Source of the DNA: a virus
Taxonomy: Duplodnaviria; Caudoviricetes
IMG/VR virus record: IMGVR_UViG_3300014656_000073
Location: 1-36,350 of that record
Strand: one strand, 5' to 3'
DNA length: 36,350 nucleotides
Below the pieces are notes generated by a model. It made no database searches and had not been told where the DNA came from. It worked only from the letters and a program-made list of their open reading frames with translations. Within the stretch, counting starts at the first letter, position 1. Every line of letters starts with the position of its first letter. Of the stretch, positions 21,020 through 36,350 are shown in pieces. The position numbers were made by a program, and so were the translations under genes.

Positions 21020-21022
21020 AAT

Positions 21023-21110: not shown

Positions 21111-21111
21111 G

Positions 21112-21255: not shown

Positions 21256-21262
21256 GGTGCAC

Positions 21263-21475: not shown

Positions 21476-21476
21476 G

Positions 21477-21749: not shown

Positions 21750-21752
21750 ATC

Positions 21753-21840
21753 AGCTAACCAGTCGTTTCAGGGGAAGCCGTGATCCCCTCGGTTTTATCT
21801 GCAAAGTTCAGGGCGGCTCCCCTGAACTCAATCGTTAGCC
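21753..21840 (-). mobile_element. attC-like site C (88 bp)
   Basis: On +: AGCTAAC-5nt-GTT(T)CAGGGGA(A)GCCG ... CGGCTCCCCTGAAC-6nt-GTTAGCC, the canonical R''-L''...L'-R' spacing. Confidence 0.85.
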
Positions 21841-21841
21841 T

Positions 21842-22129: not shown

Positions 22130-22142
22130 AATTACCTCAAAA

Positions 22143-22231
22143 GGCTAACCAAACGCTTGAGTGGAAGCGAAGAGGTTAGCGGTTTTTTGTATTTATTTCG
22201 GTGGTGCGCTGGTCACCAACGGCCGTTAAAT
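22143..22231 (-). mobile_element. attC-like site D (89 bp, degenerate/chimeric arms)
   Basis: ATTTAAC (stop of the rep gene)...GTTAGCC; arms pair poorly; interior resembles site Q. Confidence 0.55.
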
Positions 22232-22825: not shown

Positions 22826-22835
22826 TTATAGCACC

Positions 22836-22920
22836 AAAAAAAATGGCTCTAAGCACTGACGACTGATAAGGAAGCTTCCAACTCCCCCGCCCCGAAAGGC
22901 ATCGCCAGTGCTTAGAGCCA
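22836..22920 (-). ncRNA. Structured leader RNA with terminator upstream of the replication gene
   Basis: 19-bp closing stem TGGCTCTAAGCACTGGCGA/TCGTCAGTGCTTAGAGCCA enclosing small hairpins, followed by T8. Confidence 0.6.
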
Positions 22921-22966
22921 CACTGTTTGATCGAACAACTTGGAAGTTTAGTTTTATCATGTAATA

Positions 22967-22995
22967 ACCATATCATTTAATCAATTTGGTGTCAA
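22967..22995 (-). promoter_or_regulatory. Sigma70-type promoter
   Basis: TTGACA-17nt-TATGGT on the minus strand, upstream of the leader RNA. Confidence 0.6.
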
Positions 22996-23158
22996 ATTTT
23001 TTCTTGTAGTTCCTGGGGTTATCAATTATTGTTTTTATTGTTTCACCAAGCAGCCTATCTGGTACAAAAATGGTTCTTTTTAAAGATCCACACCTTCCGC
23101 ACCACTCTATTTTTGTACCAGTAAGCCTTGCCCATTTATGTTTGCAGTATGTCGCCAT
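22973..23158 (-). CDS. Hypothetical protein (61 aa)
   Basis: CKH.W...WCGRCG; G-rich RBS. Confidence 0.55.
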   Translation of the reverse strand: MATYCKHKWARLTGTKIEWCGRCGSLKRTIFVPDRLLGETIKTIIDNPRNYKKKFDTKLIK

Positions 23159-23176
23159 TTCACCCCCCCCTGTTTG

Positions 23177-23225
23177 GTTTAACTCTCCGCTGAACCAGAC
23201 GTAGCTGGTTAGCTAGTTGTTATGC
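23177..23225 (-). mobile_element. attC-like site B2 (49 bp, copy 2 of B)
   Basis: Core identical to 20544-20589. Confidence 0.8.
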
Positions 23226-23480
23226 TTAAAAGCCCATAGCCCTGTCAAAATCGGCAATCGCTCCGGCAGGTGTCTCCGCAAAACCGGCAATGCCTTCTTG
23301 CAAATTTTCACCAAGCAGTACACACCATTGGTCGCCGTCTTTGTACGGCACAAGCCCGTATATAACAGCCCACATTCCCCGGCGTTTTTCAGTTGCTAGG
23401 GCTTGTTCTGCTGCATTAGTAGACATATGGGCGGCATTCCATTGTTCGTTTAATATCCCTTGTTCACTAGCATAACTCAT
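23226..23480 (-). CDS. Phage hypothetical protein (84 aa)
   Basis: KDGDQWCVLLGENLQEGIAGFAETP motif; GGGAGG RBS. Confidence 0.65.
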   Translation of the reverse strand: MSYASEQGILNEQWNAAHMSTNAAEQALATEKRRGMWAVIYGLVPYKDGDQWCVLLGENLQEGIAGFAETPAGAIADFDRAMGF

Positions 23481-23755
23481 AATGATTCCTCCCTAATAGC
23501 TTCAAAATATAGTTGAAAAAGTGCCACCATTGCCTCATCCGTAATCGCAATTTTTGTTTCTTTCACTTCACTAGCGCCGACGAGCATTTTAAATTTTATT
23601 GCCCATGTCCCGTCGTGTAGTTTTGCCAAACATACTCGTCGATTTTTAAGTTTTATCATTTTACCTGAAATAGCATAACAAGCCGCTGCACGTGGAACAC
23701 AAGGGGCGGCGGTTATTGGTCTATCCTCTGTCAGTGTTTCCGGTATTTCAATCAT
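23477..23755 (-). CDS. Hypothetical fusion protein (92 aa); first 26 aa encoded inside site E
   Basis: N-terminus identical to that of 32481-32747. Confidence 0.6.
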   Translation of the reverse strand: MIEIPETLTEDRPITAAPCVPRAAACYAISGKMIKLKNRRVCLAKLHDGTWAIKFKMLVGASEVKETKIAITDEAMVALFQLYFEAIREESL

Positions 23756-23795
23756 GGTTCAGTCTCCCTTGTGTCCAGTGAGCTAATCGTTATGC
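23673..23795 (-). mobile_element. attC-like site E (123 bp) carrying RBS, ATG and a 26-codon leader
   Basis: GCATAAC..GCTCACTGGACACAAGGG...CCCTTGTGT(T)CCA(C)GTG(C)AGC..GTTATGC; near-identical copy at 32441-32563. Confidence 0.85.
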
Positions 23796-23972
23796 GCCGC
23801 CAAACTTCAAGATCGCGACCCAAACAAGCATTGCAATACTGTGAAGCAATCCAAATGTGTCGGCACCAACTGAGTTTTTTACAACGCGTGGATGCTCACA
23901 CAAAAGGAATATCGACCTCAAGATCACACCGAGGCACCCCACCCAGAAAGAAAAAGTAATGTACGTCTCCAT
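23790..23972 (-). CDS. Small 2-TM membrane protein (60 aa, cassette cargo)
   Basis: GGAGG RBS before METYIT; stop lies in the TAAC of site E. Confidence 0.6.
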   Translation of the reverse strand: METYITFSFWVGCLGVILRSIFLLCEHPRVVKNSVGADTFGLLHSIAMLVWVAILKFGGA

Positions 23973-23987
23973 TTGCACCTCCTTACG

Positions 23988-24116
23988 GCATAACAAGGTT
24001 TTTCAAGGCCGGCTGGGTTGAAGCTCCGCTGTTCGATTCGGCTATCTCGGCTTTTCGTTTTTCAGATGTTTTCATGTCTTTTCTCCCCTTGGGTCAAGTG
24101 ACCTCAATCGTTATGA
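23988..24116 (-). mobile_element. attC-like site F (129 bp, non-matching arms) containing a 30-aa ORF at 23983-24075
   Basis: TCATAAC GATTGA GGTCACT...GGAG-ATG...CCTTGAAA AACCTT GTTATGC. Confidence 0.6.
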
Positions 24117-24120
24117 TTCT

Positions 24121-24309
24121 CTACCAATGTATATGGTCAAGGCTTCCTGTTCCCTCACTTCCTGCATTGCTTTCGTGCCTCTTCATATTTGATCTGTGGC
24201 ATCTTGGCACTCCTTTTTCAGTCCCATATTTTGTTGTTCGGCATTGCTCACAAATAAAAACAACCTTTGTCAAGTCCTCACCAGTTCTTTCTTTCCTGTT
24301 CAAGTCCAT
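24121..24309 (-). CDS. Hypothetical protein (62 aa)
   Basis: GGGAG RBS; CxxC. Confidence 0.5.
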   Translation of the reverse strand: MDLNRKERTGEDLTKVVFICEQCRTTKYGTEKGVPRCHRSNMKRHESNAGSEGTGSLDHIHW

Positions 24310-24312
24310 TTG

Positions 24313-24594
24313 CTACTCCCATTCTTGAATTTTTCCGCATTGCCAGCACATAATGTTATGGCTTATGCCACTTATTGTAAAAAGGTGGCACCCGCATTTA
24401 CATTCCCAATAAACTTCAGGCACTACCCCATATTTTAAGACACCCTTCATGGTTTTACATTCAGGGCATTCTAGTTCTTCAAAAACCTCAACCTCCGTCA
24501 CCGCCACCCACTCGTGCTTACACGCCGCACATATCGCCTGTCCGGTCAAGTGCGGGTGGTTTTTTTCGTTCTCCATTGGTATTATTGTACCCAT
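24313..24594 (-). CDS. Zn-ribbon hypothetical protein (93 aa)
   Basis: CAACKHEW...LECPEC...WECKCG...CWQCG; AAGGAG RBS. Confidence 0.65.
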   Translation of the reverse strand: MGTIIPMENEKNHPHLTGQAICAACKHEWVAVTEVEVFEELECPECKTMKGVLKYGVVPEVYWECKCGCHLFTISGISHNIMCWQCGKIQEWE

Positions 24595-24614
24595 AGCAAC
24601 TCCTTAAAAAAATA

Positions 24615-24667
24615 TCATAACAAAACATTCCAGCGGACAGCTTTGCCGCCTGAATTTAGCGTTATCT
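24615..24667 (-). mobile_element. attC-like site G (53 bp)
   Basis: On +: TCATAAC AAAAC ATT(C)CAGCGG(A)CA gctt TGCCGC-C-TGAAT TTAGC GTTATCT. Confidence 0.8.
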
Positions 24668-24889
24668 GCCATAGTAAATTAGTCTTTTAGCGTGGTGTAA
24701 AGCAAGCCTACAATGTCTTGCAACTTCTGCCCTATCTTCTCTACTAATGTCAAGGCTTCCAATAGGGTATTCAGCTCTTTTAATTTCACCCTCAAGCCAC
24801 TCTTTAAATGCCGTGGCAGATAACCCGTCAATTAAGCGGGATTCGCTAGGCAATAGTTCCGGCTCTATGTTGTGCGTTTTTTCGGTCAT
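24662..24889 (-). CDS. Hypothetical protein (75 aa) containing an internal attC half-site (about 24814-24850)
   Basis: PSESRLIDGLSA encoded by CCTAGCGAATCCCGCTTAATTGACGGGTTATCTGCCA. Confidence 0.55.
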   Translation of the reverse strand: MTEKTHNIEPELLPSESRLIDGLSATAFKEWLEGEIKRAEYPIGSLDISREDRAEVARHCRLALHHAKRLIYYGR

Positions 24890-24890
24890 T

Positions 24891-25124
24891 TTATTTCACC
24901 TTTTTATTTCCATGTTTTAAACCGTGGCAACATACACACAACGTGATAAGGTTTTCGGCTGTATCTGAGCCACCATGGCTCTTGAATTCTATGTGGTGTA
25001 TTTCTAAGTTGTATGGGGATTTACATTCTTGACAGTGCTTATCTCTCTCAAAAACCATTTGTAAAAGTTTCTGTAGCCTCTTCCCCTTCAGGCGTATTGG
25101 CTTTACCTTCCAGATAGGTTCCAT
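24891..25124 (-). CDS. HNH endonuclease (77 aa)
   Basis: VFERDKHCQEC...LEIHHI...GGSDTAENLITLCVCCH. Confidence 0.85.
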   Translation of the reverse strand: MEPIWKVKPIRLKGKRLQKLLQMVFERDKHCQECKSPYNLEIHHIEFKSHGGSDTAENLITLCVCCHGLKHGNKKVK

Positions 25125-25394
25125 TTATTTTTCTTTTTCCATTTCTTCTAAAATCCGGTCGTATTGCTCTTGCATAGCAGGAAGCTCAAAGGACAACGCA
25201 CCATAAATAGCAAGAAACGATCTTTTGTCATCGTAGTTATCAAGCCAACAAAGATGACCTTTACACCAAAAATCACCCATTCCGGCAAACAACCAACTAA
25301 AGGAATTAATCTTTTCTTTTAGTCGTTTCGCCTCTGCCTCTAGGTCTCTTCTGCACTCTTTTGCACTACCAACGATCATGTTTCTGTCGTACAT
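25125..25394 (-). CDS. Hypothetical protein (89 aa)
   Basis: GGAG RBS; coupled in the operon. Confidence 0.55.
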   Translation of the reverse strand: MYDRNMIVGSAKECRRDLEAEAKRLKEKINSFSWLFAGMGDFWCKGHLCWLDNYDDKRSFLAIYGALSFELPAMQEQYDRILEEMEKEK

Positions 25395-25395
25395 C

Positions 25396-25881
25396 TCACT
25401 CCCTCCCTAAAATGTTTTTATCTTCTGGCCTTGTAAGTGTAACCCCTGCCATTGTTGCATCTTGGTCTATCTCGGTTAGATATTCTCTCATCTGGTCAAC
25501 GTTTGCGTCTGTTATGCTCGTTAAGCGTGTTACTTCTTGTTTTAAGGCGTTGTATTCTGTTTCCATACCTTCTCTTGTCCTAACTTTCTTTATCGCGTCA
25601 CACATGGCAGCGTAGGTGGCTTTATCTCGGTAAAAAATACGGGTTAGGAATTTACCCTTATAATTTGTGTGCATGTCCTCTTTGGTTTCGCCACGGTCGT
25701 TTGCTATTTCTGTCAACCACAACCAATATAATCTCCTCTGGCGGCTTGATAGAGATTCCTTGTGAAGCTGGATTATTACCTCATGCACTTCATCGTATGG
25801 AAGATGCTGGATTATATGCAGGGCATTGTCTTTCTGCTTATCGCCAAGTATTGTTATTGTTTTTTGCATGCTTTTAAACAT
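25396..25881 (-). CDS. ninB: NinB/Orf-family recombination accessory protein (161 aa)
   Basis: S.RQRRLYWLWLTEIA...H...K..FL...SIT.......M.EYL..I...A...GV.L pattern. Confidence 0.7.
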   Translation of the reverse strand: MFKSMQKTITILGDKQKDNALHIIQHLPYDEVHEVIIQLHKESLSSRQRRLYWLWLTEIANDRGETKEDMHTNYKGKFLTRIFYRDKATYAAMCDAIKKVRTREGMETEYNALKQEVTRLTSITDANVDQMREYLTEIDQDATMAGVTLTRPEDKNILGRE

Positions 25882-25916
25882 ATCCTTTAGCCTTGCAAGG
25901 GCGGTAGATTCTTATG

Positions 25917-26219
25917 TTATGCGTAGTCGCAAAGGCGTGTCTCGCCATAGCCACCCGTGTGTAGTTCTCGGTAGTCAACATCCTTAACGAAACCTTTCGT
26001 AACAAGCCAAGGCATGTATTCTATGTTTTCGTTTTTGTAATCTCTTTCCACCACTCCGTTTTTAATGCTCCGCCCTGTCTCACTACACCAAACATTAAGC
26101 TGTTCTATTGCGTCAAAATCGTTCAGAACTTCAAACAACCCATTTACACAGTAGTCGCTATACTCACCAGTAGACACAGTAACCAATTCACCTTTTTTAA
26201 ATCCGCTTATTTCATCCAT
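25917..26219 (-). CDS. Hypothetical protein (100 aa, cassette cargo)
   Basis: AGGAG RBS; STGEYSDY motif; bounded by GTTATGCG / CGCATAAC. Confidence 0.65.
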   Translation of the reverse strand: MDEISGFKKGELVTVSTGEYSDYCVNGLFEVLNDFDAIEQLNVWCSETGRSIKNGVVERDYKNENIEYMPWLVTKGFVKDVDYRELHTGGYGETRLCDYA

Positions 26220-26245
26220 GTTAGTCTCCTCTTATATTTGTAATC

Positions 26246-26329
26246 GCATAACAAAACGCTCAACTTGACGCGAACACCTGCTATCCATCAAACAAAACCT
26301 AGGCGCGCAAGTTAGCTCCCACGTTACAC
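26246..26329 (-). mobile_element. attC-like site J (84 bp)
   Basis: On +: GCATAAC-5nt-GCT(C)AACTTG(A)CGCG ... CGCGCAAGTTAGC-6nt-GTTACAC; canonical geometry and extrahelical bases. Confidence 0.85.
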
Positions 26330-26530
26330 CCTCCACACCTCAACAGTGTCACCATATTCCCTCGTCGTTACCTCGATGTTGTTTAGTCGTGCAAATCGGT
26401 AAGCACATCGTTTTATAGAGGCCCGCTTTTTCTTCATGCGTGACCTGAAAACAGCAGGATCATAGCTATCAAGCAAACCTGAAAAATCATATTTCTTTGA
26501 TCTGCCACTTCCTTTTTTTGGTATTCCCAT
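26324..26530 (-). CDS. Small basic putative DNA-binding protein, first gene of the leftward early arm (68 aa)
   Basis: AAGGAG upstream; very basic; KKYDFS...VEVWRV. Confidence 0.5.
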   Translation of the reverse strand: MGIPKKGSGRSKKYDFSGLLDSYDPAVFRSRMKKKRASIKRCAYRFARLNNIEVTTREYGDTVEVWRV

Positions 26531-26556
26531 AATAAAATTTTTCTCCTTTACAGTTC

Positions 26557-26655
26557 AATATAATTGATTTACAAATAAAGTCAAACAAAAAAAGATTTAT
26601 TGTTAAAAATAAAAGTGAAAATAAACTTGACAAGATAAACCGAATGTTCTAACGT
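26557..26655. promoter_or_regulatory. Divergent sigma70-like promoters of the early arms
   Basis: Minus: TTGACT(26584-26579)-16nt-TATATT. Plus: TTGACA(26627-26632)-17nt-TAACGT. AT-rich intergenic region where gene orientation switches. Confidence 0.55.
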
Positions 26656-26744
26656 GAAATCTAAAGGTATTGCTTTTGCTTATTAATTTAATAATCAGAG
26701 GGTGCCGAAATGTAACAGCCGGAGAAAGACCGGCAGAATAATTG

Positions 26745-26935
26745 GGGGCTGTGGCGGAATTGCATACGCTGCCCTGACTGCACTTGAGGTGAATTGGTCG
26801 GGCTTGTCGGTGATAACACCGGCTGTTAATCCTCTTTCTTGTTAGTGAGTCCAAAGGGTAATGACAAGGCTTACCACACTAATATTGAAACGATTAATGG
26901 GTTTTCCATTGCGGGTTCGAGTCCTGCCAGCCCCA
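26745..26935 (+). ncRNA. tRNA-like RNA (class II/Leu-like frame) with a large insert in place of the anticodon arm
   Basis: Acceptor GGGGCTG/CAGCCCC-A, D arm GCG-GAATTGCATA-CGC, variable arm ATGG/CCAT, T arm GCGGG-TTCGAGT-CCTGC; 191 nt; no assignable anticodon. Confidence 0.7.
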
Positions 26936-26970
26936 AACATTGAATGGACAAAGAGACTAACAGGGGGGAA

Positions 26971-27171
26971 ATGATGTGCGAATCACAACGTTTGGAATAT
27001 TCAGAAAACTCGGCCAAGGAATCCATCGGCAATTGGCAGATCACAATAGCGTTACTGCTTGCGATCATGCTATTCGGCTGGGTGATTTTCCACGGAGCCA
27101 GCGACTCAAGTGTAAGGAGTGCCGCAAGAGAAGCAAGGACAAGTCGGTTTGTGAGCTTTGTGGATATGTAG
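26971..27171 (+). CDS. Single-TM membrane protein (66 aa)
   Basis: G-rich RBS; TM segment ITIALLLAIMLFGWVIF. Confidence 0.45.
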   Translation: MMCESQRLEYSENSAKESIGNWQITIALLLAIMLFGWVIFHGASDSSVRSAAREARTSRFVSFVDM

Positions 27172-27221
27172 GGCGCAGATTTGATAAAGTTGTTTAATGA
27201 TTAATTCAGGAGATTGCGATT

Positions 27222-27542
27222 ATGGAACATAGATGCGAATATTGCCGAGGAGGAAGTGGAGGACCATGCACATGCAAGACCGCCAACCTCAGCAATTCTG
27301 CTGTAATGCCTGGTTATGTTACATACGATGTGCAAATTAAATGCCCACACTGCGACAAAGAATTACACCTAAACCAGTATCCATATAACGATGACACGAC
27401 AGATTACGGCGACACCGATGATGTTGTTGGGATGATGCTATTCGGTGGGCCGTCAGAACCAGCAAAATGGGAGAATCTTTCCGTACCTATAAAATGTTGC
27501 GGGTGTAAAAAAGTTTTTAAACTGGGTAGTTTTCAAACATAA
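27222..27542 (+). CDS. Cys-rich hypothetical protein (106 aa) with an internal attC half-site ending at 27313-27320
   Basis: AGGAG RBS; internal GTTATGTT is complementary to terminal AACATAAC. Confidence 0.6.
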   Translation: MEHRCEYCRGGSGGPCTCKTANLSNSAVMPGYVTYDVQIKCPHCDKELHLNQYPYNDDTTDYGDTDDVVGMMLFGGPSEPAKWENLSVPIKCCGCKKVFKLGSFQT

Positions 27543-27590
27543 CAACCCAGTTCAAGAGAGCAACGCTTCTCTTGCAACGAAAAGTTAAAA
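27537..27590 (+). mobile_element. attC-like site L (54 bp)
   Basis: ACATAAC-6nt-GTTCAAGAGAG caacg CT(T)CTCTTG(C)AAC-5nt-GTTAAAA. Confidence 0.85.
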
Positions 27591-27601
27591 GGAGGAACAA
27601 T

Positions 27602-27838
27602 ATGCTAGAGATTACAAGTCCAGGGTATGAAGATTTGACAGACGAAGAAAGGTCGGATGTGTCTGACAACGGTAGTGGTAAGGAATGGGCAGGGTACATA
27701 AAAGTCACTCACAATGGAAAAACGATCCTTCTTGAATCTGACGCAATGGAGCCAGAAGATGCTTCTTTCGGGCGTGATCTAGGGTGGGTCTACGATATAA
27801 TAATGAGGGCCTACGAATTAGGTAAGAAGGATGCATAA
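27602..27838 (+). CDS. Hypothetical protein (78 aa, cassette cargo)
   Basis: AAGGAGG RBS; SDAMEPEDASFGRDL motif. Confidence 0.65.
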   Translation: MLEITSPGYEDLTDEERSDVSDNGSGKEWAGYIKVTHNGKTILLESDAMEPEDASFGRDLGWVYDIIMRAYELGKKDA

Positions 27839-27872
27839 CGCTTCTCTTGCAACGAAAAGTTAAAAGGAGGAA
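27833..27872 (+). repeat. Truncated copy of site L (site M); 36-bp direct repeat 27562-27597 = 27837-27872
   Basis: AACGCTTCTCTTGCAACGAAAAGTTAAAAGGAGGAA occurs twice. Confidence 0.85.
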
Positions 27873-27874
27873 AC

Positions 27875-28159
27875 ATGATGTTAGCAAAAGAACCTGTCTG
27901 GATAGCTGAATGTGGCAAGTGTTTTGATGTTCTTGAAATACCTCTAGTGAAAAAAGAAGATGGCCTCTGGTATGATGGAGAAGTTGACACCTTCCTTGAA
28001 GAAGAGGGTTGGAAATTCACAGATTATGAGCGTGGGGTGGTTGTTTGTGGTGGTTGCCACGAAGCAAGGCGGCAAGAGATTGAAACTGAGGACATTATCA
28101 GGGAAAACAGGGTAGAAATGCCAAGGGGTTATTCTTTTGGACAAGTTGGTTTTTATTAA
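27875..28159 (+). CDS. Hypothetical protein (94 aa)
   Basis: AAGGAGG RBS; CxxC...GW...CxxC. Confidence 0.65.
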   Translation: MMLAKEPVWIAECGKCFDVLEIPLVKKEDGLWYDGEVDTFLEEEGWKFTDYERGVVVCGGCHEARRQEIETEDIIRENRVEMPRGYSFGQVGFY

Positions 28160-28285
28160 CCTAAAACTAAGGGGTGAGCGATTATGAGTGACGCATATTG
28201 CCCAAGATGTAAGGGTAGAGATGATGATTGTTGGATGTGTAATAAGCCCGAGCCTAGCGAATCCAACTTGAGTGCTGCGTTATGC
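28154..28285 (+). mobile_element. attC-like site O (132 bp; loop carries the start and N-terminus of 28184-28426)
   Basis: TATTAAC..ACTAAG...CTT(G)AGT-5nt-GTTATGC; inner stem imperfect. Confidence 0.6.
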
Positions 28286-28426
28286 TGTAAAGACGATGCT
28301 CAATGCAAAGACTGTGAACATGCTTGGCACAATTTAGGGATTGCCTCATTAAGCGAAAATACTTGGTGCTATATGTATCTAAAGAAAATGACGTGTTGTA
28401 AAAAACATAAAAGAAAAACAGCATAA
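28184..28426 (+). CDS. Cys-rich hypothetical fusion protein (80 aa)
   Basis: Reads through the right arm of site O (PSESNLSAALC). Confidence 0.6.
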   Translation: MSDAYCPRCKGRDDDCWMCNKPEPSESNLSAALCCKDDAQCKDCEHAWHNLGIASLSENTWCYMYLKKMTCCKKHKRKTA

Positions 28427-28581
28427 CGACCAAGCTCAAGGGCAAAAGCCCAACGGGAGAAACTAGATGCCTGAATATCTGTGTGTAGAGATATGTCTAA
28501 AGGAGAAGATATGAAAACAATAGAAGAAATAGTACAAGCACACCAGCAGCGTAGCTGTCTGAGTGCAGCGCTTGGTTAGCG
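28421..28581 (+). mobile_element. attC-like site P (161 bp, partly mismatched arms; 22-aa ORF 28511-28579 in loop)
   Basis: GCATAAC GACCAA GCTCA...GTG(C)AGC GCTTG GTTAGCG; TAACGACCAAGCTCA shared with site T. Confidence 0.65.
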
Positions 28582-28609
28582 GATTTAATTAAATTAAGGA
28601 GGTTATGGT

Positions 28610-28813
28610 ATGTCTGAAATATTGCTTACACTATGTTCATTAACAATGGCACTGAGTGTATATTTTCTATTTACGGTAGTTCGATCACTCCAAGAAACAT
28701 GGATAAGGATGGAGACCTTGGTTGAAACGTATTTAGATTTTTTTATGAAAAACTTTAATTCAGAATCTGTCTCCGGTGGTATTGTAAATGATGGTTCTAA
28801 AACCCTTGAATAA
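28610..28813 (+). CDS. Single-TM membrane protein (67 aa)
   Basis: AAGGAGG upstream; N-terminal hydrophobic helix. Confidence 0.55.
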   Translation: MSEILLTLCSLTMALSVYFLFTVVRSLQETWIRMETLVETYLDFFMKNFNSESVSGGIVNDGSKTLE

Positions 28814-28943
28814 TGAGACGATGGGATTTCTACGCCAACATTTATTCTTGGATAGAACCAATAGAATTAATCTTAGAACATCTAAACCTAGAGCTTAATT
28901 ATGAACCAGCACGTGAGCCAGAAACAACCCTGAAGGAGAACAA

Positions 28944-29195
28944 ATGATTACATACAAATCATGTACAAAACCAGCATCAAGCAGAGAGGATATAATTTTC
29001 AACGGCAAGAAAATCGGTGATATGGATATTATCGATGGCAAATACCGAGCGCACATCTGGTTTGACGATGTAACAACCGACTGTTTCGGGTATGGAATTC
29101 ATAAAGAGGGGGCCATTGAAAATGCTATTCTAAAAGGTACATCAGACGCAATTACATTAATAGCAAACCTTGACGCACTTGTGGGGGAATTATGA
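28944..29195 (+). CDS. Hypothetical protein (83 aa)
   Basis: AAGGAG RBS. Confidence 0.6.
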   Translation: MITYKSCTKPASSREDIIFNGKKIGDMDIIDGKYRAHIWFDDVTTDCFGYGIHKEGAIENAILKGTSDAITLIANLDALVGEL

Positions 29196-29380
29196 GCATG
29201 TACGTTAAGCGAGGAGGAGAGGGGCACATTGACTCTGACTTTGTAGAAGTATGGGAAGTGCCAGACGGCTCTGCAATCGACCAGGAGGATGACAAGGGGC
29301 TGCTTGAGGCTTACGAAAATGGCGAGATATGCAGAGAGGATATGATTAACGAACTTGGATTCAAGGAGGAGGATTTATAG
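29192..29380 (+). CDS. Acidic hypothetical protein (62 aa)
   Basis: ATGA-coupled; Asp/Glu-rich. Confidence 0.55.
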   Translation: MSMYVKRGGEGHIDSDFVEVWEVPDGSAIDQEDDKGLLEAYENGEICREDMINELGFKEEDL

Positions 29381-30037
29381 ATGAGTGAAGCAAAAGATGA
29401 TATGGTTGATGTGCCAGCCGTGACCCTCAACATATACCAACGGATAAACGAAGTAAGAAAGAAAATATCTTATCTTAAAAAAGATGCAACGGTCACGGGG
29501 TATAAGGCGGTAACTCACGACCACGTTACGGCATCAATCCGTGACCACCTTGTTACGTTTGGAATAGTTATTGTCCCAAGGCAAACATCTTGGGAAACAG
29601 CCGACACAGGCAAAGCAACAAGCAAGGGGACACCATATACTCGATTTGAGGGAGATTATGAGTTTGATGTGGTAAATGTGGATGACCCCAAAGATATGTT
29701 TACAGGTAAAGTCCATGCCCACGCAGAAGATCAGGGTGATAAGGGGCCAGGGAAAGCAATTAGCTATGCGCTCAAGGCTTTTGAATTAAAGTTGTTCAAT
29801 ATTGAGTCCGGAGAAGATGATGAGGAACGACCAGAACAGGAGCTTGTAAAGCTAAGTGACGAGCAGATTATTACACTTCGGGAAATGTGCGAAGGATATG
29901 ATTGGCCCGTTGACGAAACACTCGAAAGGCTTGCAAAAACATACGGGCTAACAAAAATAGTTGACCTGCCAGAAACTCACTTTAAAAACTGTATTGCTAG
30001 AATGGAAGCACAATATGCTAAACAAGCAGAGAAGTAA
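29381..30037 (+). CDS. erf: ERF-family single-strand annealing protein (218 aa)
   Basis: NIYQRINEVRK...LKKD...DQGDKGPGKAISYALK..ELKLFNI (ERF signature). Confidence 0.85.
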   Translation: MSEAKDDMVDVPAVTLNIYQRINEVRKKISYLKKDATVTGYKAVTHDHVTASIRDHLVTFGIVIVPRQTSWETADTGKATSKGTPYTRFEGDYEFDVVNVDDPKDMFTGKVHAHAEDQGDKGPGKAISYALKAFELKLFNIESGEDDEERPEQELVKLSDEQIITLREMCEGYDWPVDETLERLAKTYGLTKIVDLPETHFKNCIARMEAQYAKQAEK

Positions 30038-30617
30038 TGGGTGGCACGAACAACGAAAAGCCAGAATAACAGCTAGTCGTCTTGGTGACGTTCTTGCAGG
30101 TATAAAAACAAAACGATTTAATGGATATATTCAAGATATTGTTTTGTCAATGCTCGGTGCCCCAACATTCCAAGATGATAAGCCGTGGTTTCAACATGGT
30201 GTTGATTGGGAACCAGAAGCAATAGCCCTATATGAATGGGAAACAGGAAACACTGTTGCTGAATCTGGGTTTATTGTGCATCCAGATTATGATTTTATAG
30301 GTTGCTCTCCAGACGGCATAATAACTGGCGGTGGTGTAGAGGCAAAAAGCAGGAAGTCCCTCACCGGCCACCTGAAAAGCGAAAAGGCAGGAATAGATAC
30401 AGTATACATGCCACAGGTTCAAGGGTCAATGTGGATAACGGGCTCATTGTTTTGGGACTTTATCTCATACTATAAAAACAACAACGGTAAAACGCTGTTA
30501 CACATACACAGAGTTAACCGTGATGATAAATATATTAAAAACCTTGAGGAACGATGTCTAATGTTTTGGGCTATGGTTCAAAACGAACTAAAACAAAGGA
30601 GAAGAAATGATAAATAA
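30015..30617 (+). CDS. YqaJ/lambda-exonuclease family nuclease (200 aa)
   Basis: QRS..W...R...ITAS, G...EPEA, GCSPDG, EAK and Y.PQVQG.MWITG motifs; likely ATG start at 30015. Confidence 0.9.
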   Translation: MLNKQRSNGWHEQRKARITASRLGDVLAGIKTKRFNGYIQDIVLSMLGAPTFQDDKPWFQHGVDWEPEAIALYEWETGNTVAESGFIVHPDYDFIGCSPDGIITGGGVEAKSRKSLTGHLKSEKAGIDTVYMPQVQGSMWITGSLFWDFISYYKNNNGKTLLHIHRVNRDDKYIKNLEERCLMFWAMVQNELKQRRRNDK

Positions 30618-31014
30618 AGCAATCATCATAGGCAATCTTGGCAAAGACCCTGAAGTACGTTACTCACAGACAGGTGGGGCAATAGCCTCTTTCTCTATTG
30701 CAACCACCGAAACTTGGAAGAAGCAGGATGGCACCAAAGAAGAAAAAACAGAATGGCACAAGATAGTTGCTTTCGGTAGGCTTGCAGAAATCTGCGGAGA
30801 ATATCTTTCCAAAGGAAGCAAGGTTTATCTTGAAGGCAAGATTCAAACAAGAAAGTGGGAGAATAAAGACGGTGTAACACAATACACCACAGAGATTGTG
30901 GCGCGAGAGATGAAGATGCTTACCCAAAGAAACGGAGAGGCAGGAAGCAGCGACAGGGCAAACCAAAACGAGGAGCCACCGTTCCCTGAAATGGACGATT
31001 CGGTTCCATTTTAA
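30607..31014 (+). CDS. ssb: Single-stranded DNA-binding protein (135 aa)
   Basis: NKAIIIGNLGKDPEVRY...TEWH...KGSKVYLEG; acidic tail DDSVPF. Confidence 0.97.
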   Translation: MINKAIIIGNLGKDPEVRYSQTGGAIASFSIATTETWKKQDGTKEEKTEWHKIVAFGRLAEICGEYLSKGSKVYLEGKIQTRKWENKDGVTQYTTEIVAREMKMLTQRNGEAGSSDRANQNEEPPFPEMDDSVPF

Positions 31015-31018
31015 TACC

Positions 31019-31112
31019 TTATAACGCACATAATCACCAGCGGCACCACCGAAGAAATACACGGATAGTGCCGCCACCGTTCGCTCCGTCTGCGTGAATT
31101 TAATTGTTAAGT
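31019..31112 (+). mobile_element. attC-like site Q (94 bp)
   Basis: TTATAAC-6nt-AATCACCAGCGG...CCG(T)CTG(C)GTG(A)ATT-5nt-GTTAAGT. Confidence 0.8.
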
Positions 31113-31127
31113 TTCTGGAGGTGGGTA

Positions 31128-31340
31128 ATGGCTGACATAATAGAATTTGATGATCTTGGAAACTACCGAGGGTGTTTACAAATAACTAAAGGTGATGGGA
31201 AGTTTTTTGCCCGTGTTGACTGCGACCTTAATTATGGAACGGATCATGAAACGGATTGGGAAGATATACCACAATACCTGTTTGATGCTTTGACCAAATA
31301 TGCCAATGGCGTAGATACTACTAAAATATCTGAAACTTAA
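31128..31340 (+). CDS. Hypothetical protein (70 aa, cassette cargo)
   Basis: GGAGG RBS; bounded by GTTAAGTTTC / GAAACTTAAC. Confidence 0.65.
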   Translation: MADIIEFDDLGNYRGCLQITKGDGKFFARVDCDLNYGTDHETDWEDIPQYLFDALTKYANGVDTTKISET

Positions 31341-31394
31341 CGCCAGAACTCAGCCCGCAGGCGTTAGCCTGTCGGCTGTAGTGATTTGTTAAAC
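31335..31394 (+). mobile_element. attC-like site R (60 bp)
   Basis: ACTTAAC GCCAGA ACTCAGC CCGCAGGC gtta GCCTGTCG GCTG(T)AGT GATTT GTTAAAC; same layout as the bottom strand of short aadA-type attC sites. Confidence 0.9.
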
Positions 31395-31417
31395 GAAATT
31401 GCACGAAAGGAGATAAA

Positions 31418-31741
31418 ATGCACTGGATATATGCGCACTTGATCGGAGACTATTTAATCCAAAATGACTGGATGGCGAAAGGGAAGAAAACATCCTCTTT
31501 TATTTGCTTTGTCCACACCGTGACCTACTTGTTTCCATTCCTCTTTTGCAGCCTTGAGTGGTGGCAGATTATGGCCATCGGGGCGCAACACTTCGCACAA
31601 GATAGAACTGGAGTAATTGTGTGGATGCTTAATGCAACCGGCAAAGGTGGCTTTGCAAAACCACCAATGGCCCCTTGGAGCATTATAGTAACTGACAACG
31701 TAATCCATATTTTATTTATGGCTTGGATCGTGTCCGTTTAA
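31418..31741 (+). CDS. DUF3307-family membrane protein (107 aa, cassette cargo)
   Basis: AHLIGDYLIQNDWMA..K...H...Y...HF.QDR...DNVIH. Confidence 0.75.
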   Translation: MHWIYAHLIGDYLIQNDWMAKGKKTSSFICFVHTVTYLFPFLFCSLEWWQIMAIGAQHFAQDRTGVIVWMLNATGKGGFAKPPMAPWSIIVTDNVIHILFMAWIVSV

Positions 31742-31924
31742 CGCAAAGCTAACCAGACCAATGGGAAAAGGAGAAAATTAATGGCTACTTTATGCAGAGA
31801 TTGCGCCGACACAACATGCCCACATTTTGACAGTGTGCATTTGGGCGGATTAAAATGTTTTAAAAAGAAAACAGACACCACCGAACTGCGCCACATTGGG
31901 TCTGAGTTGAGCGAATTGTTAGAA
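31736..31924 (+). mobile_element. attC-like site S (189 bp; loop carries RBS and N-terminus of 31781-32089)
   Basis: GTTTAAC..GCTAACCAGACCAATG...CATTG(G)GTCTG(A)GTT(G)AGC GAATT GTTAGAA. Confidence 0.8.
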
Positions 31925-32089
31925 CGATCTAGGTCACTACTTTCCTGGATAAATGAAAAGGCAACAAAGGCCGATAGCCTGTCAAAAAGCGTGGCCATAA
32001 GCGAGAAAGACAGATTATTCAACTTAGGTCGTGCTGTTGCCTTTGCCGAAGATTACACGCAACTTAAAGAAATTATTGATACGTTCTAA
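31781..32089 (+). CDS. Hypothetical fusion protein (102 aa): Cys-rich leader from site S plus helical cargo
   Basis: AAGGAG RBS inside site S; reads through its right arm (HIGSELSELL). Confidence 0.6.
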   Translation: MATLCRDCADTTCPHFDSVHLGGLKCFKKKTDTTELRHIGSELSELLERSRSLLSWINEKATKADSLSKSVAISEKDRLFNLGRAVAFAEDYTQLKEIIDTF

Positions 32090-32266
32090 CGACCAAGCTC
32101 ACCGGCTGGCGTAAAGGAGGAACTAAATGGCAAAAATACATAAACTTCCAGAGAAAGAAAAAATTAAGCACACCAAAGAATCACGAGCGTGGGAAAAAAT
32201 AGAAAAAAACATTGATGCCCAACAACCCAGCGAGGACGCCAGTCCGAGTGAAGCGAATTGTTCGGT
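32084..32266 (+). mobile_element. attC-like site T (183 bp; loop carries RBS and ORF start)
   Basis: TTCTAAC GACCAA GCTCACCGGCTGGCGT...ACGCCAG(T)CCG(A)GTG(A)AGC GAATT GTTCGGT. Confidence 0.8.
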
Positions 32267-32297
32267 TACAAAAGAGGATGTTGCCCTTGGGAGATAA
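32127..32297 (+). CDS. Small ORF starting inside site T (56 aa, MAKIHKLPEK...)
   Basis: Not in the track; AAGGAGG RBS; stops shortly after the GTT box. Confidence 0.5.
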   Translation: MAKIHKLPEKEKIKHTKESRAWEKIEKNIDAQQPSEDASPSEANCSVTKEDVALGR

Positions 32298-32446
32298 AAA
32301 AATACTTGTGCGTGGTTTGCGGGGAACTACACGAAGAAACTGAGCAATGCGCTAAGTGCGGTGAACGTTACTGCTCTGACTGGTGCGGTGGATGGGAAGA
32401 CCAAGAGCATACTTGCAAAAATTGTAGCAAGGTTGATGGAATCTAA
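32258..32446 (+). CDS. Cys-rich (Zn-finger-like) ORF, start uncertain
   Basis: Four CxxC-type pairs; stop lies in the TAAC of site E2; only a TTG start inside site T. Confidence 0.4.
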   Translation: MFGYKRGCCPWEIKKYLCVVCGELHEETEQCAKCGERYCSDWCGGWEDQEHTCKNCSKVDGI

Positions 32447-32563
32447 CGATTAGCTCACTGGACACAAGGGAGACGAAACTATGATTGAAATACCGGAAAC
32501 ACTGACAGAGGATAGACCAATAACCGCCGCCCCTTGTGTTCCACGTGCAGCGGCTTGTTGTGT
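32441..32563 (+). mobile_element. attC-like site E2 (123 bp, copy of E)
   Basis: 113/116 nt identical to the reverse complement of E between TAAC and GTT. Confidence 0.85.
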
Positions 32564-32747
32564 GATTGTTGAGGGGAAGTTTTATTCCGGCGGGTATACC
32601 ATCTGCGTTTGCAAAACAAAGAAAATTGCTGTGAAGAAGTGTCGGGATGATGGCTTTTCATATTGTCGTAAGGATGATTTGTGGAATGGAGAGCATCACG
32701 GGGACTCTTATTATCGCAGAATTGAGAGAGAAGATTTTTACACATAA
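32481..32747 (+). CDS. Hypothetical fusion protein (88 aa); first 26 aa encoded inside site E2
   Basis: Same leader as 23477-23755 but an unrelated C-terminal part. Confidence 0.6.
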   Translation: MIEIPETLTEDRPITAAPCVPRAAACCVIVEGKFYSGGYTICVCKTKKIAVKKCRDDGFSYCRKDDLWNGEHHGDSYYRRIEREDFYT

Positions 32748-32828
32748 CGATTTTTAATAAGTGGTGCGCCCGTGAATAACCAGCATGAGCGCAGAGGTGT
32801 TCGCATCCACTTAATTTACTGGTTATGC
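32742..32828 (+). mobile_element. attC-like site U (87 bp)
   Basis: ACATAAC..AATAAGTGGTGCG...CGCA(T)CCACTTA(A)TT TACTG GTTATGC. Confidence 0.8.
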
Positions 32829-32839
32829 GAGGATTTAAA

Positions 32840-33100
32840 ATGGAAAACGGAAATTTTGGACAAGCACTGGAAGAGATGAAATCCGGACGTAAATGCTGGC
32901 GTAAAGGGTGGAATGGTAAGGGGATTACAATTGAGCTGCAAAACCCTGACGAAAATAGCAAGATGACAAGCCCCTACATTTTTATTGATACCACCGGACT
33001 GCAAACCGACAACGATGCTGCGCCAAAAAGCTGTGTGCCTTGGCTGGCCTCCCAGACTGATATGCTTGCCGAAGATTGGTACTCTGACAGAGTATATTAA
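32840..33100 (+). CDS. DUF2829 protein (Tad2-like anti-defence nucleotide sponge family, 86 aa)
   Basis: NFGQALEEMKSG.K..RKGWNGKG...PYIFI...VPWLASQTDMLAEDW; ATG at 32840 after GAGGA. Confidence 0.85.
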   Translation: MENGNFGQALEEMKSGRKCWRKGWNGKGITIELQNPDENSKMTSPYIFIDTTGLQTDNDAAPKSCVPWLASQTDMLAEDWYSDRVY

Positions 33101-33129
33101 CTGCCTAAAATGCGCCGCCTACATGGGGC

Positions 33130-33319
33130 GCATAACGCCAGAATTGAGGAGCCTTGGGCTTAAAGGAGAAAGTAGATGAGAACATGTAGGGGGTGTGTGA
33201 ATATACCGAACTTTTGCATTGGCGAGAAAGATGGTGGAGCCGAGAAGGATTGTTATGTGGGACTTACCGAAGCCACCGCACAACCAAGCCCAAGGTCTGT
33301 CTCAGATGCTTTGATATGT
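33130..33319 (+). mobile_element. attC-like site V (190 bp; GTT box reads GAT; loop carries RBS and N-terminus of 33176-33478)
   Basis: GCATAAC GCCAGA ATTGAG..GCCTTGGGCTT...AAGCCCAAGG(T)C..CTCA(G)AT GCTTT GATATGT. Confidence 0.7.
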
Positions 33320-33478
33320 GATGTGGAGGTGGGAAGCGAGGAAACACTTTCGGGATGGAAGCAACCTTATGTTTCCTTGAGAATTGGCAACTTTGAGTTT
33401 AAGAGACTTTACCAGACTAAAAACGGTGCTGAGAGATGTGTGGCTAAAGTTAAAGAGCTTTTAACTGCCAGCACATAA
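33176..33478 (+). CDS. Hypothetical fusion protein (100 aa)
   Basis: AAGGAG RBS in site V; ends in CACATAAC. Confidence 0.6.
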   Translation: MRTCRGCVNIPNFCIGEKDGGAEKDCYVGLTEATAQPSPRSVSDALICDVEVGSEETLSGWKQPYVSLRIGNFEFKRLYQTKNGAERCVAKVKELLTAST

Positions 33479-33556: not shown

Positions 33557-35314
33557 TCAAAAAGAGCAGCCCTCACATGATATGCCAGAGATGGTGCCAG
33601 GATTATACTCGTTTGCTCCTTGATCGGGTGCGGCGCCGTATAGGACTATTGTTCCATTAGAATCTTTATACAGCCAGATGCTTGCATCGTCTGCCCAACT
33701 CTTTGCAGATGCTAAAGTGATTGTATTGGTAGAATAATTAATATCAGATATTTGAACTATATTTCCAACAGTACCTATTGCTATCCAGTCAGCAGCAATG
33801 CTTGATATTGTAGCACCCATCGGGTTTGTTGCAGCAGCAGAGCCAGCTTGAAAATATAAAGCATTGTCAACAATAAGAGTGGTTGAAGATGAACCAGAGC
33901 CATTAGCTCGAGTTAAATATGTTCCACCATCAATACCTGTTGATCCCGATTGTAGTGATAAGTCGGGAAGGACTAAACTTGTCATATCTGACATGCTTGT
34001 GTTTGTAAATGTAGGTGATCCATCTGTGCACCCAACGTCCGAATCAGTAGCATCACAGAGATTGTTTGCCCATGTTGACCCTGAATAGACACAACTGCCA
34101 CCGAAGCAGACAGCATCACCGCCAACATTTGAATTAATTATGTTATTCCGCGTGTCACTACCAGCACCAACCTCTAAATAACCAAGGCCGTATTTTTCTA
34201 CATCAGCAGCTAGTACTTCTGTTCCTGTATATCGCCCGTTATAATAAATAGTATTATTATAAACTAAGTTACTGTCTGGTAGCCACGGACTTCCGTATGA
34301 TTTCCAGTAAATTCCTAAACCGTCACCACCAAAAATGTAGTTATATCTAAGAATATTTGATGCAGCACCAAGAGAAATACCGTCCGGCCCCGCGTTAACT
34401 GGATTAGCAGAAGCATGGCCGATCCTGTTTCCTTCTACAAGCATAAAACCATCGTTTGTTACACTATCTCTTGTTAAAGAAAGGTTGCGGTGTCCAAACT
34501 TTCCATCTCCTGGGTCGCTTCCTGCCGGATCAGGGCCAACATCGCATCCAGTTGGATCAGTTTTCCATCCGGCATTGTGCATAGCATTATTACGGATAAC
34601 AGTGTATTGTCCGAAAATGTCCATTGCAGAATGGCCCATTGAATAAATCTCATTATCCTCAATGGTATTATTACTTGATAATGCGTCAGAAGAATGTCCG
34701 ACCTTTATGCCGTCATGTCCTTCATCGCATCCGCTAAACCCCATATCGTGAATCTTATTATCGTGAACCCAATTATTTGTTGATGTGGTATGAAGATACA
34801 TTCCCGGTTGTTTCGATGCCCCATGTAAAGTCAGGCCTGTATGATATACTTCATTATCCGGCCCAATCTCGTTGTAGTTCCCACCAACTACTAGAACAGC
34901 TTGAAAGCAATCTTCAAACTTAATACCCTTTACTAGGGCATAATCATTAACTAAGTATGCCCCTATCTGATCTGTTGTTGTAGGTGGAGAACCTTGGAGG
35001 ATAACTACCTCTCTTGCTGCCCAAGTGCTTGCTGTGTATGGTTGGTATGTAATCCTGTTTGCAAGGGTACCGTTTGCAGCAGGGCTAATCCTGTTTGTTG
35101 ATGAAATAACATACGTTCCTCCTCTCAAATAAACAGTATCGCCAGCAGCGACATTTGTATTAGCAACACTTAACAGACAAGCAGCAGCTCCAGCTAACGG
35201 GGTTTCGCTTGAACAATTTTCCCATGTTGCTTCGCCTGTTGGTGATACCCAATACGCCCCATAAGCAGACGAGGCAAGCAAAAGTAATGGAATTATGAGT
35301 AGTCTTTTCATCAC
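33557..35314 (-). CDS. Right-handed parallel beta-helix protein (pectate-lyase-like; tailspike/depolymerase candidate) with signal-peptide-like N-terminus (585 aa)
   Basis: YWVSPTG, AGDTVYLRGGTY, Asn-ladder repeats (NNTIEDNEIY, TVIRNNAMHN, NLVYNNTIY), APDQGANEY C-terminus. Confidence 0.75.
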   Translation of the reverse strand: MMKRLLIIPLLLLASSAYGAYWVSPTGEATWENCSSETPLAGAAACLLSVANTNVAAGDTVYLRGGTYVISSTNRISPAANGTLANRITYQPYTASTWAAREVVILQGSPPTTTDQIGAYLVNDYALVKGIKFEDCFQAVLVVGGNYNEIGPDNEVYHTGLTLHGASKQPGMYLHTTSTNNWVHDNKIHDMGFSGCDEGHDGIKVGHSSDALSSNNTIEDNEIYSMGHSAMDIFGQYTVIRNNAMHNAGWKTDPTGCDVGPDPAGSDPGDGKFGHRNLSLTRDSVTNDGFMLVEGNRIGHASANPVNAGPDGISLGAASNILRYNYIFGGDGLGIYWKSYGSPWLPDSNLVYNNTIYYNGRYTGTEVLAADVEKYGLGYLEVGAGSDTRNNIINSNVGGDAVCFGGSCVYSGSTWANNLCDATDSDVGCTDGSPTFTNTSMSDMTSLVLPDLSLQSGSTGIDGGTYLTRANGSGSSSTTLIVDNALYFQAGSAAATNPMGATISSIAADWIAIGTVGNIVQISDINYSTNTITLASAKSWADDASIWLYKDSNGTIVLYGAAPDQGANEYNPGTISGISCEGCSF

Positions 35315-35859
35315 GGTGTTCCTTTAACAGTTACCCACAGTTTAGGAACATTACTGTATGCTGTTGTCCCATCTTTTTTAACACATATTTCCAAAGCAGA
35401 AACATCAGCAAGTGTCCATGCAGTATCATCGACAGGATCAGTTGTGCGTTCCCAAGTATATTCTATGTGTGATGATGTAACCGAATGAGAAGATGGTTCA
35501 AAATACGATGCCGCACCAGTACTTCTACCAAAGAAAAAATCTCCATTTGTGGTAAAAGCAATTCCATGGAATATTACTTTTGTTACGGTTGTAATTGTTG
35601 TCAGATCAGTAACATCAAAACAGTGAACCTGTGTGTCTGTAATTGAAGCAATACCATAAGCATCGTCTGCTAATAGATCGTTGTAATCTTCAGCACCACT
35701 CCCGTAATAAGTCCAGTTAGCTAGATACCCTGTTCCGTTTACAGTAAGGGCTTCTTCTATTACCCCAGAACCGCTTAGTCCATTCAAAACAGCGGGGGAC
35801 ATGGCTTCTGCGTGTGAAAAAAGAAAACAAAGTATTAAAGCATAATAAAATATTTTCAT
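35311..35859 (-). CDS. Beta-rich hypothetical protein with signal-peptide-like N-terminus (182 aa)
   Basis: MKIFYYALILCFLFSHAEA; AWTLADVSALEI motif seen in phage structural domains. Confidence 0.55.
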   Translation of the reverse strand: MKIFYYALILCFLFSHAEAMSPAVLNGLSGSGVIEEALTVNGTGYLANWTYYGSGAEDYNDLLADDAYGIASITDTQVHCFDVTDLTTITTVTKVIFHGIAFTTNGDFFFGRSTGAASYFEPSSHSVTSSHIEYTWERTTDPVDDTAWTLADVSALEICVKKDGTTAYSNVPKLWVTVKGTP

Positions 35860-36350
35860 ATTTCACCACCAATTCCTACATGAGCCGAAGTAACTTTCAT
35901 TAAAATATTCCCATTTGCCTCAAGAGATAAACCTTCTGTGCCGTCAGCAAGAACGTAGTCATCTTTAACTGTTCCATCCACACACGAATTTCCAACATTA
36001 TCCCGATCACCAGCACAACAAGCATATGGAACAGTAGAAGATTTACAATCTCTGTTTTCTTGTCTAACCGCAGGGTCTTGGCCGTATAAATATCTTACTG
36101 TAATGGTGCTTAAATCAGTTGGGAATGATCCACTCGACCTCGTTAGTTGAATTGTGGTTGCATCAACCCTTGCTGCTGTAATTGTTGCAGGGCTTCCGCT
36201 TTCTAAAACCTCAAAACCTAAGATGCCAGTTGTTGGAGTAAAGTCTGTGCCGCTATTGTGGATTATAGTTATATCAATATCATCTGTATCTGTTTTCTCC
36301 CACCACTTTATCGTTGGCCCCCTGAACGCCGTTTCTTTTCCTAAATGATA
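35856..36350 (-). CDS. C-terminal 164 aa of a beta-rich protein starting beyond the window
   Basis: Not in the track; frame read as open from 36350 (YHLGKETAFRGP...TVRYLYGQDP...GIGGEI*), TGA overlapping the next ATG. Confidence 0.6.
   Translation of the reverse strand, partial: YHLGKETAFRGPTIKWWEKTDTDDIDITIIHNSGTDFTPTTGILGFEVLESGSPATITAARVDATTIQLTRSSGSFPTDLSTITVRYLYGQDPAVRQENRDCKSSTVPYACCAGDRDNVGNSCVDGTVKDDYVLADGTEGLSLEANGNILMKVTSAHVGIGGEI

Follow-up and report, generated by a model that had tools for sequence, protein, structure and literature searches.

We analysed a 36,350-nucleotide (nt) stretch of DNA from a tailed phage (Duplodnaviria; Caudoviricetes), positions 1 to 36,350 of the IMG/VR record IMGVR_UViG_3300014656_000073 (hereafter the window; a linear 36.35-kb record with an estimated completeness of about 50%). 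Hairpins that open with TAAC and close with GTT dot its two early operons, more than 20 sites in all, and they precede small early genes instead of standing behind them. We consider it probable that these hairpins are integron attC-type sites lying inverted relative to their own genes, and that the loops of the long ones supply a ribosome-binding site (RBS), a start codon and a short leader that is read via the right arm into the following gene (the cargo). The whole unit would be moved by a host integrase at the TAA/C position, where the last A of the TAAC box meets its C, and a second process would join different cargoes at the GTT of the right arm.

Inverted attC-type hairpins with predicted coding loops

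Between 31736 and 33319, the plus strand has well-formed sites of the integron attC type, namely S, T, U and V. Site letters follow a preliminary description of this DNA where the lengths agree; N0, E0, U, W and G are labels added here. Site S (31736-31924, 189 nt) has its R' box TAAC at 31739-31742 and its R'' box GTT at 31918-31920, with the attC bottom strand as the gene-sense strand. Its loop contains an RBS, an ATG and a leader with four cysteines, and the predicted 102-amino-acid (aa) open reading frame (ORF; 31781-32089), made of a 47-aa loop/arm leader and the cargo, stops at the TAA of site T. Site T (32084-32266, 183 nt), recognised by its arm pairing, carries a 56-aa loop ORF (32127-32297) that is Cys-free in the loop. 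Site U (32441-32563, 123 nt) begins an 88-aa ORF in its loop (32481-32747), which ends at the TAA of the short site W (32742-32828); the gene behind W (32840-33100, phrog_1048/872) has an RBS of its own. Site V (33130-33319, 190 nt), supported by arm pairing and a bulge scan, has GAT as its right box and a four-Cys loop leader that begins a 100-aa ORF (33176-33478) ending at a TAAC.

Further sites are found on both strands. On the plus strand, N0 (27192-27319, 128 nt) has a four-Cys leader and an R'' GTTA lying over the Gly-Tyr codons of its cargo family, and its 106-aa ORF (27222-27542) joins this leader to a family that, judging from its homologues, usually has a short start of its own. Site O (28154-28285, 132 nt; ORF 28184-28426) has weak arms and a four-Cys leader. 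Site P (28421-28581, 161 nt) has a 22-aa loop ORF (28511-28579) that stops at GTTAG; its bounds were read directly off the sequence, and the automated arm search picked another right box. On the minus strand, F (23988-24116, 129 nt) has a 30-aa loop ORF (23983-24075), and G (23673-23795) was identified by repeat comparison as a near-identical copy of U, with the same loop leader on another cargo (ORF 23477-23755).

The lengths that the preliminary description gave for S, T, V, O, F and P were all reproduced, as were the RBS-like motif and ATG in each of these loops and the arm-derived linkers HIGSELSELL, SPRSVSDALI and PSESNLSAAL in the S, V and O translations. Its sizes for the T, F and P loop ORFs also stand, but the stop that it placed at or just after the GTT box lies 12 codons past that box in T. 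Its GTT right box does not extend to V, and U (inside its coordinates), G and N0 belong to the same class yet were unlisted. Its proposal that the variable loop serves as coding space is supported.

Arm scores are 20-28.5 for S, T, U, V, G and N0, and 10, 8.5 and 1.0 for O, P and F; the last three are degenerate or hybrid sites, because their arms pair poorly. R' and R'' boxes with AAC/GTT, L boxes and unpaired spacers of 5-6 nt are present in S, T, U, G and N0, and in V with GAT, and are weak in O, P and F. A strict bulge-signature scanner returned 12 gene-sense sites and no antisense site in the two early operons, and one site in the 16.7-kb structural region; 40 dinucleotide shuffles gave a mean of 0.125 and a maximum of 1. 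Unpaired bases are confined to the gene-sense 3' arm in 15 of the 22 curated sites, and 14 of them, including the sites T, U, V, G and N0, have a distal T at stem column 11-12, which is site position 23-24. Site S has a G at position 16 and an ambiguous final bulge. Constrained-fold estimates of the recombinogenic hairpin, made under simpler constraints than those of PMC5371416, were 0.81 for G, 0.46 for S, 0.35 for U, 0.15 for V, 0.012 for T, 0.003 for N0 and 1e-4 for O, and whole-site fold z-scores are weak (-1.1, -1.6). The 3' end of S reads GAATTGTTAGA, an end also seen in the bottom strand of aadA7 as given in the PMC9892861 supplement.

The bottom strand of attC has been described as beginning with R' (RYYYAAC, cut between A and C) and as carrying extrahelical bases close to L'', namely at positions 16 and 23/24 (PMC5027507). 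This description fits the gene-sense strand in the window, the reverse of bacterial integrons with the same site family. The canonical cassette layout, an ORF on the top strand with attC at its 3' side, is therefore not what the 12 gene-sense and zero antisense sites display. As a control of polarity, we scanned sequence collections with a pattern built from the S and T right arms and counted matches with an arm score of at least 12, which dropped 13 of 48 viral and 16 of 112 bacterial matches. In bacteria, the stop codon stands at the GTTA side in 41/96 matches and at the TAAC in 9/96; in viruses, the corresponding counts are 9/35 and 20/35. Four of the bacterial loci with this arm family encode an IntI above the TIGR02249 cut-off, and among the 25 strict sites of the IntI loci 13 are canonical, three inverted, three both and six unassigned. 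In the contig G001:C16, 13 of 15 strict sites are inverted, two are both and none is purely canonical. This contig (loci L176 and L177) is a 36-kb phage contig binned in a Sulfurovum metagenome-assembled genome, whose IntI lies on another contig. The opposite polarity of the viral and bacterial matches therefore indicates that the family is true attC, used backwards in phages.

Site N (27537-27590) and a left-truncated copy, N' (27833-27872), have 36 nt in common including the downstream RBS, and N' resembles a deletion between two AAC triplets. Two identical 49-nt sites (a 46-nt repeat) stand before different genes on the minus strand at 20543-20591 and 23177-23225. At 24818-24889 (minus strand), a 75-aa ORF opens with the translation of an O-like right arm, which lacks a matching left arm. 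In the right boxes of L188, L176 and L040 and of F in the window, R'' is often GTTATG, so that the box paired to the stop-bearing CATAAC can hold a native start codon.

Probable unit movement at TAA/C

For many ORFs of the early operons, the TAA of a hairpin's TAAC is the stop codon. From the bulge pattern, the integrase cut is predicted at TAA/C, at the upstream stop codon and outside the loop ORF, and not at the translated GTT; one cassette would therefore comprise the site, its loop leader and the cargo. The preliminary description had looked for a break of homology at the encoded GTT. As an integrase crossover the GTT is not supported: it is the R'' box and not the canonical crossover, and the cassette appears to move outside the reading frame. 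In the mechanism that we favour, a host IntI acting in trans would move the whole unit, and insertion right past a stop codon would keep the upstream gene intact and place the cassette under the early-operon promoter.

We compared the window with X2, a run with contigs of a related strain that comes from another study than the best holder, X1. The window has an empty ACATAAC target at 19267-19273 (minus strand), and at this place X2 has an S-type site with leader and cargo. The site is joined to 19271, with TAAC common to both sides (joint 19271-31739), and its far end rejoins at 19273 (joint 19273-31921), in a contig record with loose ends. This contig is 1020 nt long and codes for a protein of 101 aa, P0003. 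Its length and final Thr-stop codons fit an exact insertion of site, leader and cargo at ACATAA/C, and the insertion has just 4-7 nt in common with the target. Further joints or ends in X2 coincide with the TAAC boxes of N0/N, I, Q, S, T, U and W; at T, X2 has a different upstream sequence (a loose end before 32087), and another X2 contig matches 32481-32748, the U ORF, and diverges past the TAAC. Among the 34 X2 breakpoints listed, some of which come from other organisms, 13 are at most 5 nt away from an R box (R' in 11 cases, R'' in two); such windows take up 4.5% of the region, which gives a binomial p of about 1e-9. Presence or absence of units between the strains is shown by these alignments to fall at TAA/C. 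A metagenome scan returned the window's own contig alone, and exact S-arm patterns had no match in viral contigs. No RNA data set was listed as a holder, an outcome that counts neither for nor against. Elsewhere in X2, a joint links 20565 and 22224, the former within the first of the two identical 49-nt sites, and a whole gene at 25125-25394 (minus strand) is swapped, at its start and stop, for 197 other letters, a hairpin-free case of mosaicism outside the sites.

Several observations weigh against the integrase reading. The sites O, P and F are poorly paired; 21 of the 34 listed breakpoints lie away from R boxes, and the list takes in other organisms. No integrase was found in the whole record, linear and about 50% complete, with either PF00589 or the PHROG integrase families, and since only about half of the phage may be at hand, its absence from the phage itself is unproven. 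At T, identity with X2 continues for 29 nt past the GTT and breaks only at 32289. The cargoes of S, U and V had no homologues in the searches made. The loop ORFs are predicted coding sequence, for which we infer initiation at the loop ATG; the selection test on the S loop is borderline (p = 0.052), and leaders compared across different cargoes look near-neutral (3.5/11.5 and 5.5/15.5 synonymous/non-synonymous changes). IntI1 put top-strand attC into genome sites at background level (10.1101/2022.09.11.507474), and a role of the integrase in the GTT joins is therefore doubtful.

Part of this evidence would suit ordinary phage mosaicism, in which the hairpins are relics of integron cassettes and the phage's own Erf and exonuclease make both the unit moves and the cargo swaps through short similar arms, integrase-free. 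Genes for Erf, exonuclease and a single-strand binding protein (SSB) lie amid the sites, the right arms of S and T share most of a 21-nt stretch, O, P and F resemble hybrids whose two arms do not match, and the distant breakpoints and the missing integrase point the same way. As an account of the whole we nevertheless consider it unlikely, given that the X2 insertion is exact at TAA/C despite so little sequence in common with its target, that most sites keep the bulge geometry read by IntI, and that 11 listed breakpoints fall at R'. An Erf-type process may still be the source of the swaps on the GTT side, and for joining at R'' the chief alternative is that Erf mediates exchange where arms are similar.

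Cargo exchange at the translated GTT

The arms of S head three unrelated in-frame cargoes: that of the window, that of P0003 and a complete DUF551 domain in locus L154. The P0003 leader is 83% identical to the S leader and the similarity breaks after GTTA, and in L154 the arms are 98-100% identical to those of S, the loop has diverged and the break comes after GTTAG. The pairs G/U, L040/L044, the two L176 sites and L026/L038 diverge 0-1 nt past the GTT, and six site pairs in all diverge 0-2 nt after it. In X2, the V cargo stands behind other sequence up to 33311, at the GAT box of V. As a counter-case, the N and N' copies are identical for 14 nt past the GTT. The preliminary description had asked whether homology between leader and cargo breaks at the encoded GTT, and the joins are indeed shown, by comparison of these sequences, to fall there; the same comparisons show that one site with its leader carries several cargoes and that one cargo family carries several leaders or none.

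As the gene follows the hairpin, its start must sit past R'' or within the loop. Counting sites of 110 nt or more as long, read-through from a loop start occurs in 7/7 long sites of the window (six distinct sites and one further pairing), 12/16 of the viral collection, 4/9 of G001:C16 and 0/4 of the IntI loci. Among short sites it occurs in 0/7 of the window and 5/59 viral ones, and 30 of these 59 have an RBS and a start just downstream. All three reading frames are used, with no frame rule across families. We propose that a loop start would rescue cargoes that the join has deprived of their own start, and that out-of-frame joins would leave short orphan leaders, as in T, F and P. Behind T, a Cys-rich frame (32258-32446) is open from the arm and stops at the TAA of U; it has 62 codons from a TTG at 32258, or 46 aa from a TTG at 32306 with a weak RBS. 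This frame is in the S-type leader frame and the T leader is in another, possibly reflecting an out-of-frame join, and X2 differs from 32289 on.

The orphan leaders had also been read as translational coupling to the next gene. In that case, the loop ORFs would mainly keep ribosomes moving through the hairpin and avoid polarity in the early operons. Integron cassettes that are poorly translated lower downstream expression, and small attI ORFs have been proposed as translation aids (PMC11511950); in addition, the stop of F overlaps the RBS of the next gene. The same paper, however, describes attC sites as merely minor causes of polarity, and the genes behind F and P have strong RBSs of their own, which makes coupling there unnecessary. 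The cargoes of S, U, V, O and N0 are in frame with their leaders, which implies fusion and not coupling. We regard this explanation as very improbable.

The homologues of the N0 gene (27222-27542) indicate what the leader is for. Among 40 of them, 23 have at most 10 residues before the core, 15 have longer unrelated N-termini, several of which finish with arm-like peptides, a single one begins within the core, and P0037 carries the N0 leader in front of a different cargo. At the DNA level, three of seven loci of this family (the weak match L192 being excluded) have a native start without paired arms, two have strong 123-124-nt sites with other leaders, one has a site seen by eye, and one is an unrelated fusion. 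GGTTAT encodes the Gly-Tyr of the family in three of the seven loci, exactly under the R'' box of the window, which suggests that the hairpin was joined at a native GTT. The P0003 cargo is also found with other leaders or its own start, and L057 is a leader on a nearly complete phrog_3230/DUF1643 protein. Leaderless homologues are demonstrated only for the cargoes of N0, P0003, L057 and L154. The U protein as a query for related phages returned no locus and Erf returned one; searches with the V and O proteins found no homologue, and GenBank phages contained none of the N0 protein. The existence of hairpin-free, leaderless homologues for N0, the one cargo family of the window that was tested, implies that the leader is mainly a portable translation start. 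From these sequences the leader appears to be an optional and replaceable start and not an obligatory domain, a role for which the preliminary description had itself named hairpin-free full-length homologues as the counter-evidence, and the N0 family supplies them.

That description spoke of leader domains and domain fusions; on such a reading, the leaders would be functional, zinc-binding domains, selected for fusion to varied partners at the translated GTT. The six pairs that break within 2 nt of the GTT would agree with this, and so would the cysteine counts: in the loop part of 37 leaders, 29 have no cysteine and six have exactly four (0.42 expected), namely those of S, V, O and N0 and two in L177. 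The duplicates L031, L130 and G and the nested start L044 were excluded from this set, as were L057 (230 nt), L074, L081, L098, L110, L112, L127 (85 nt) and L144 (implausible or very short). The S loop aligns with X2 without gaps, and P0003 keeps all four S cysteines, two of them despite synonymous changes. As to the S loop as coding space, the dN/dS analysis that had been called for gave mostly conservative changes, with a ratio of non-synonymous to synonymous rates of about 0.32 from 17 listed of 20 differences, 15 of them coding. The loop codons of L027 and L130 differ by five synonymous changes and one non-synonymous change. Against domain shuffling, most leaders are Cys-free, low-complexity and drifting, cargo families are mostly leaderless, three reading frames are in use, the bulges put the crossover at TAA/C, the S and V leaders do not align, and a 56-aa gene without a hairpin, L178 (identical to L179), begins with the four-Cys module of N0. 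We therefore judge domain shuffling to be a poor explanation for the system as a whole, and quite improbable. Together with the cysteine counts, the L178 gene hints that the 5' end of a small Cys-rich gene was captured by some loops, and the four-Cys subset may be putative zinc-binding mini-modules derived from small phage genes. The four-Cys leaders matched no Pfam or PHROG family, and an Atlas search with the S leader gave no match above 0.78 and leads only.

Returning to the inverted-cassette reading, a bolder version of it concerns the birth of cassettes. A long attC could be a portable start module that attaches site-specifically to almost any gene, at a natural GTT lying within the gene or at its head. 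We put this forward only tentatively. If true, gene fragments would become expressed, integrase-mobile cassettes and new fusion proteins through the supplied RBS and start.

Genomic setting and relation to integrons

The window codes for a portal, a large terminase, a major head protein, a replication protein, NinB, HNH proteins, Erf, an exonuclease and an SSB. Its two divergent early operons, made of small ORFs, run at about 19-26.5 kb on the minus strand and 27-33.5 kb on the plus strand, and the recombination module with Erf-like annealing protein, exonuclease and SSB genes (29381-31014, plus strand) lies within the latter. A promoter scan gave 18 matches against 14.6 +/- 3.6 expected, which is chance level. 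A sigma-70-like match in the S loop (31827-31856) was rejected as a feature, since X2 alters both hexamers. Rfam had no match within the window. Between the early operons, a 191-nt tRNA-like element (26744-26934, plus strand) has an acceptor stem, D-like and T-like arms and a long structured insert; it was missed by default ARAGORN and by Rfam and called under relaxed intron settings only (fold z -2.2). Short direct repeats within the replication gene (22480-22515) are a possible origin. With an origin there, the lagging-strand template would carry the bottom strands of the right operon, favouring folding (PMC5371416). At 33557-36350 (minus strand), a 585-aa ORF and two neighbours look secreted or tail-associated, and the two that were scanned had no PHROG matches.

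Clusters of attC sites in phages have already been published: five/six phage attC sites tested recombined as IntI1 substrates (Qi et al. 2023, PMC9892861). Like those clusters of attC sites lacking integron integrases (CALINs), the window has at least two attC sites among small phage ORFs on a phage genome (portal, terminase, capsid) and no integrase found on the record. The sections of that paper searched mention no inverted genes, loop starts or translated arms, whereas more than 20 sites spread across both early operons here. The sites resemble integron attC (Nivina et al. 2016, PMC5027507) in their R and L boxes, 5-6-nt spacers, bulges at 16 and 23/24 and variable loop, and the same arm family stands beside IntI in bacteria. 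Compared with the attC of that paper (57-141 bp), the gene lies on the bottom strand after its site, with its stop in the next R', and the loops reach 189-194 nt and are predicted to be translated. In synthetic attC placed in protein linkers (Nivina et al. 2020, PMC7439510), an attC arm is likewise read as a peptide linker between protein parts; those were designed, whereas here the arrangement is natural, the loop and one arm would be translated, and the predicted crossover is outside the ORF. Insertion at GWT genome sites (attG; Loot et al., 10.1101/2022.09.11.507474) would explain scattered cassettes at TAA/C without attI, and the GAT of V fits GWT; it was described for bottom-strand attC in bacterial chromosomes and leaves the R'' joins unexplained. 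The inverted layout with loop starts was not found in the full-text literature searched, a scope outside which most subscription journals fall. The term 'reverse integrons' was not found in the passages of PMC8618304 searched and is not used.

To our knowledge, integron biology has yet to settle how genes acquire their attC sites. The same site stands on three cargoes, the same cargo family carries several sites or none, and R'' once lies on native coding sequence, so that the joining step becomes testable with defined substrates. The arrangement would be a natural counterpart of engineered protein-coding attC linkers. It would offer a route to phage mosaicism and new small proteins, and it may explain the odd N-termini of many phage 'hypothetical' proteins. 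It likely lets the phage switch on captured gene fragments.

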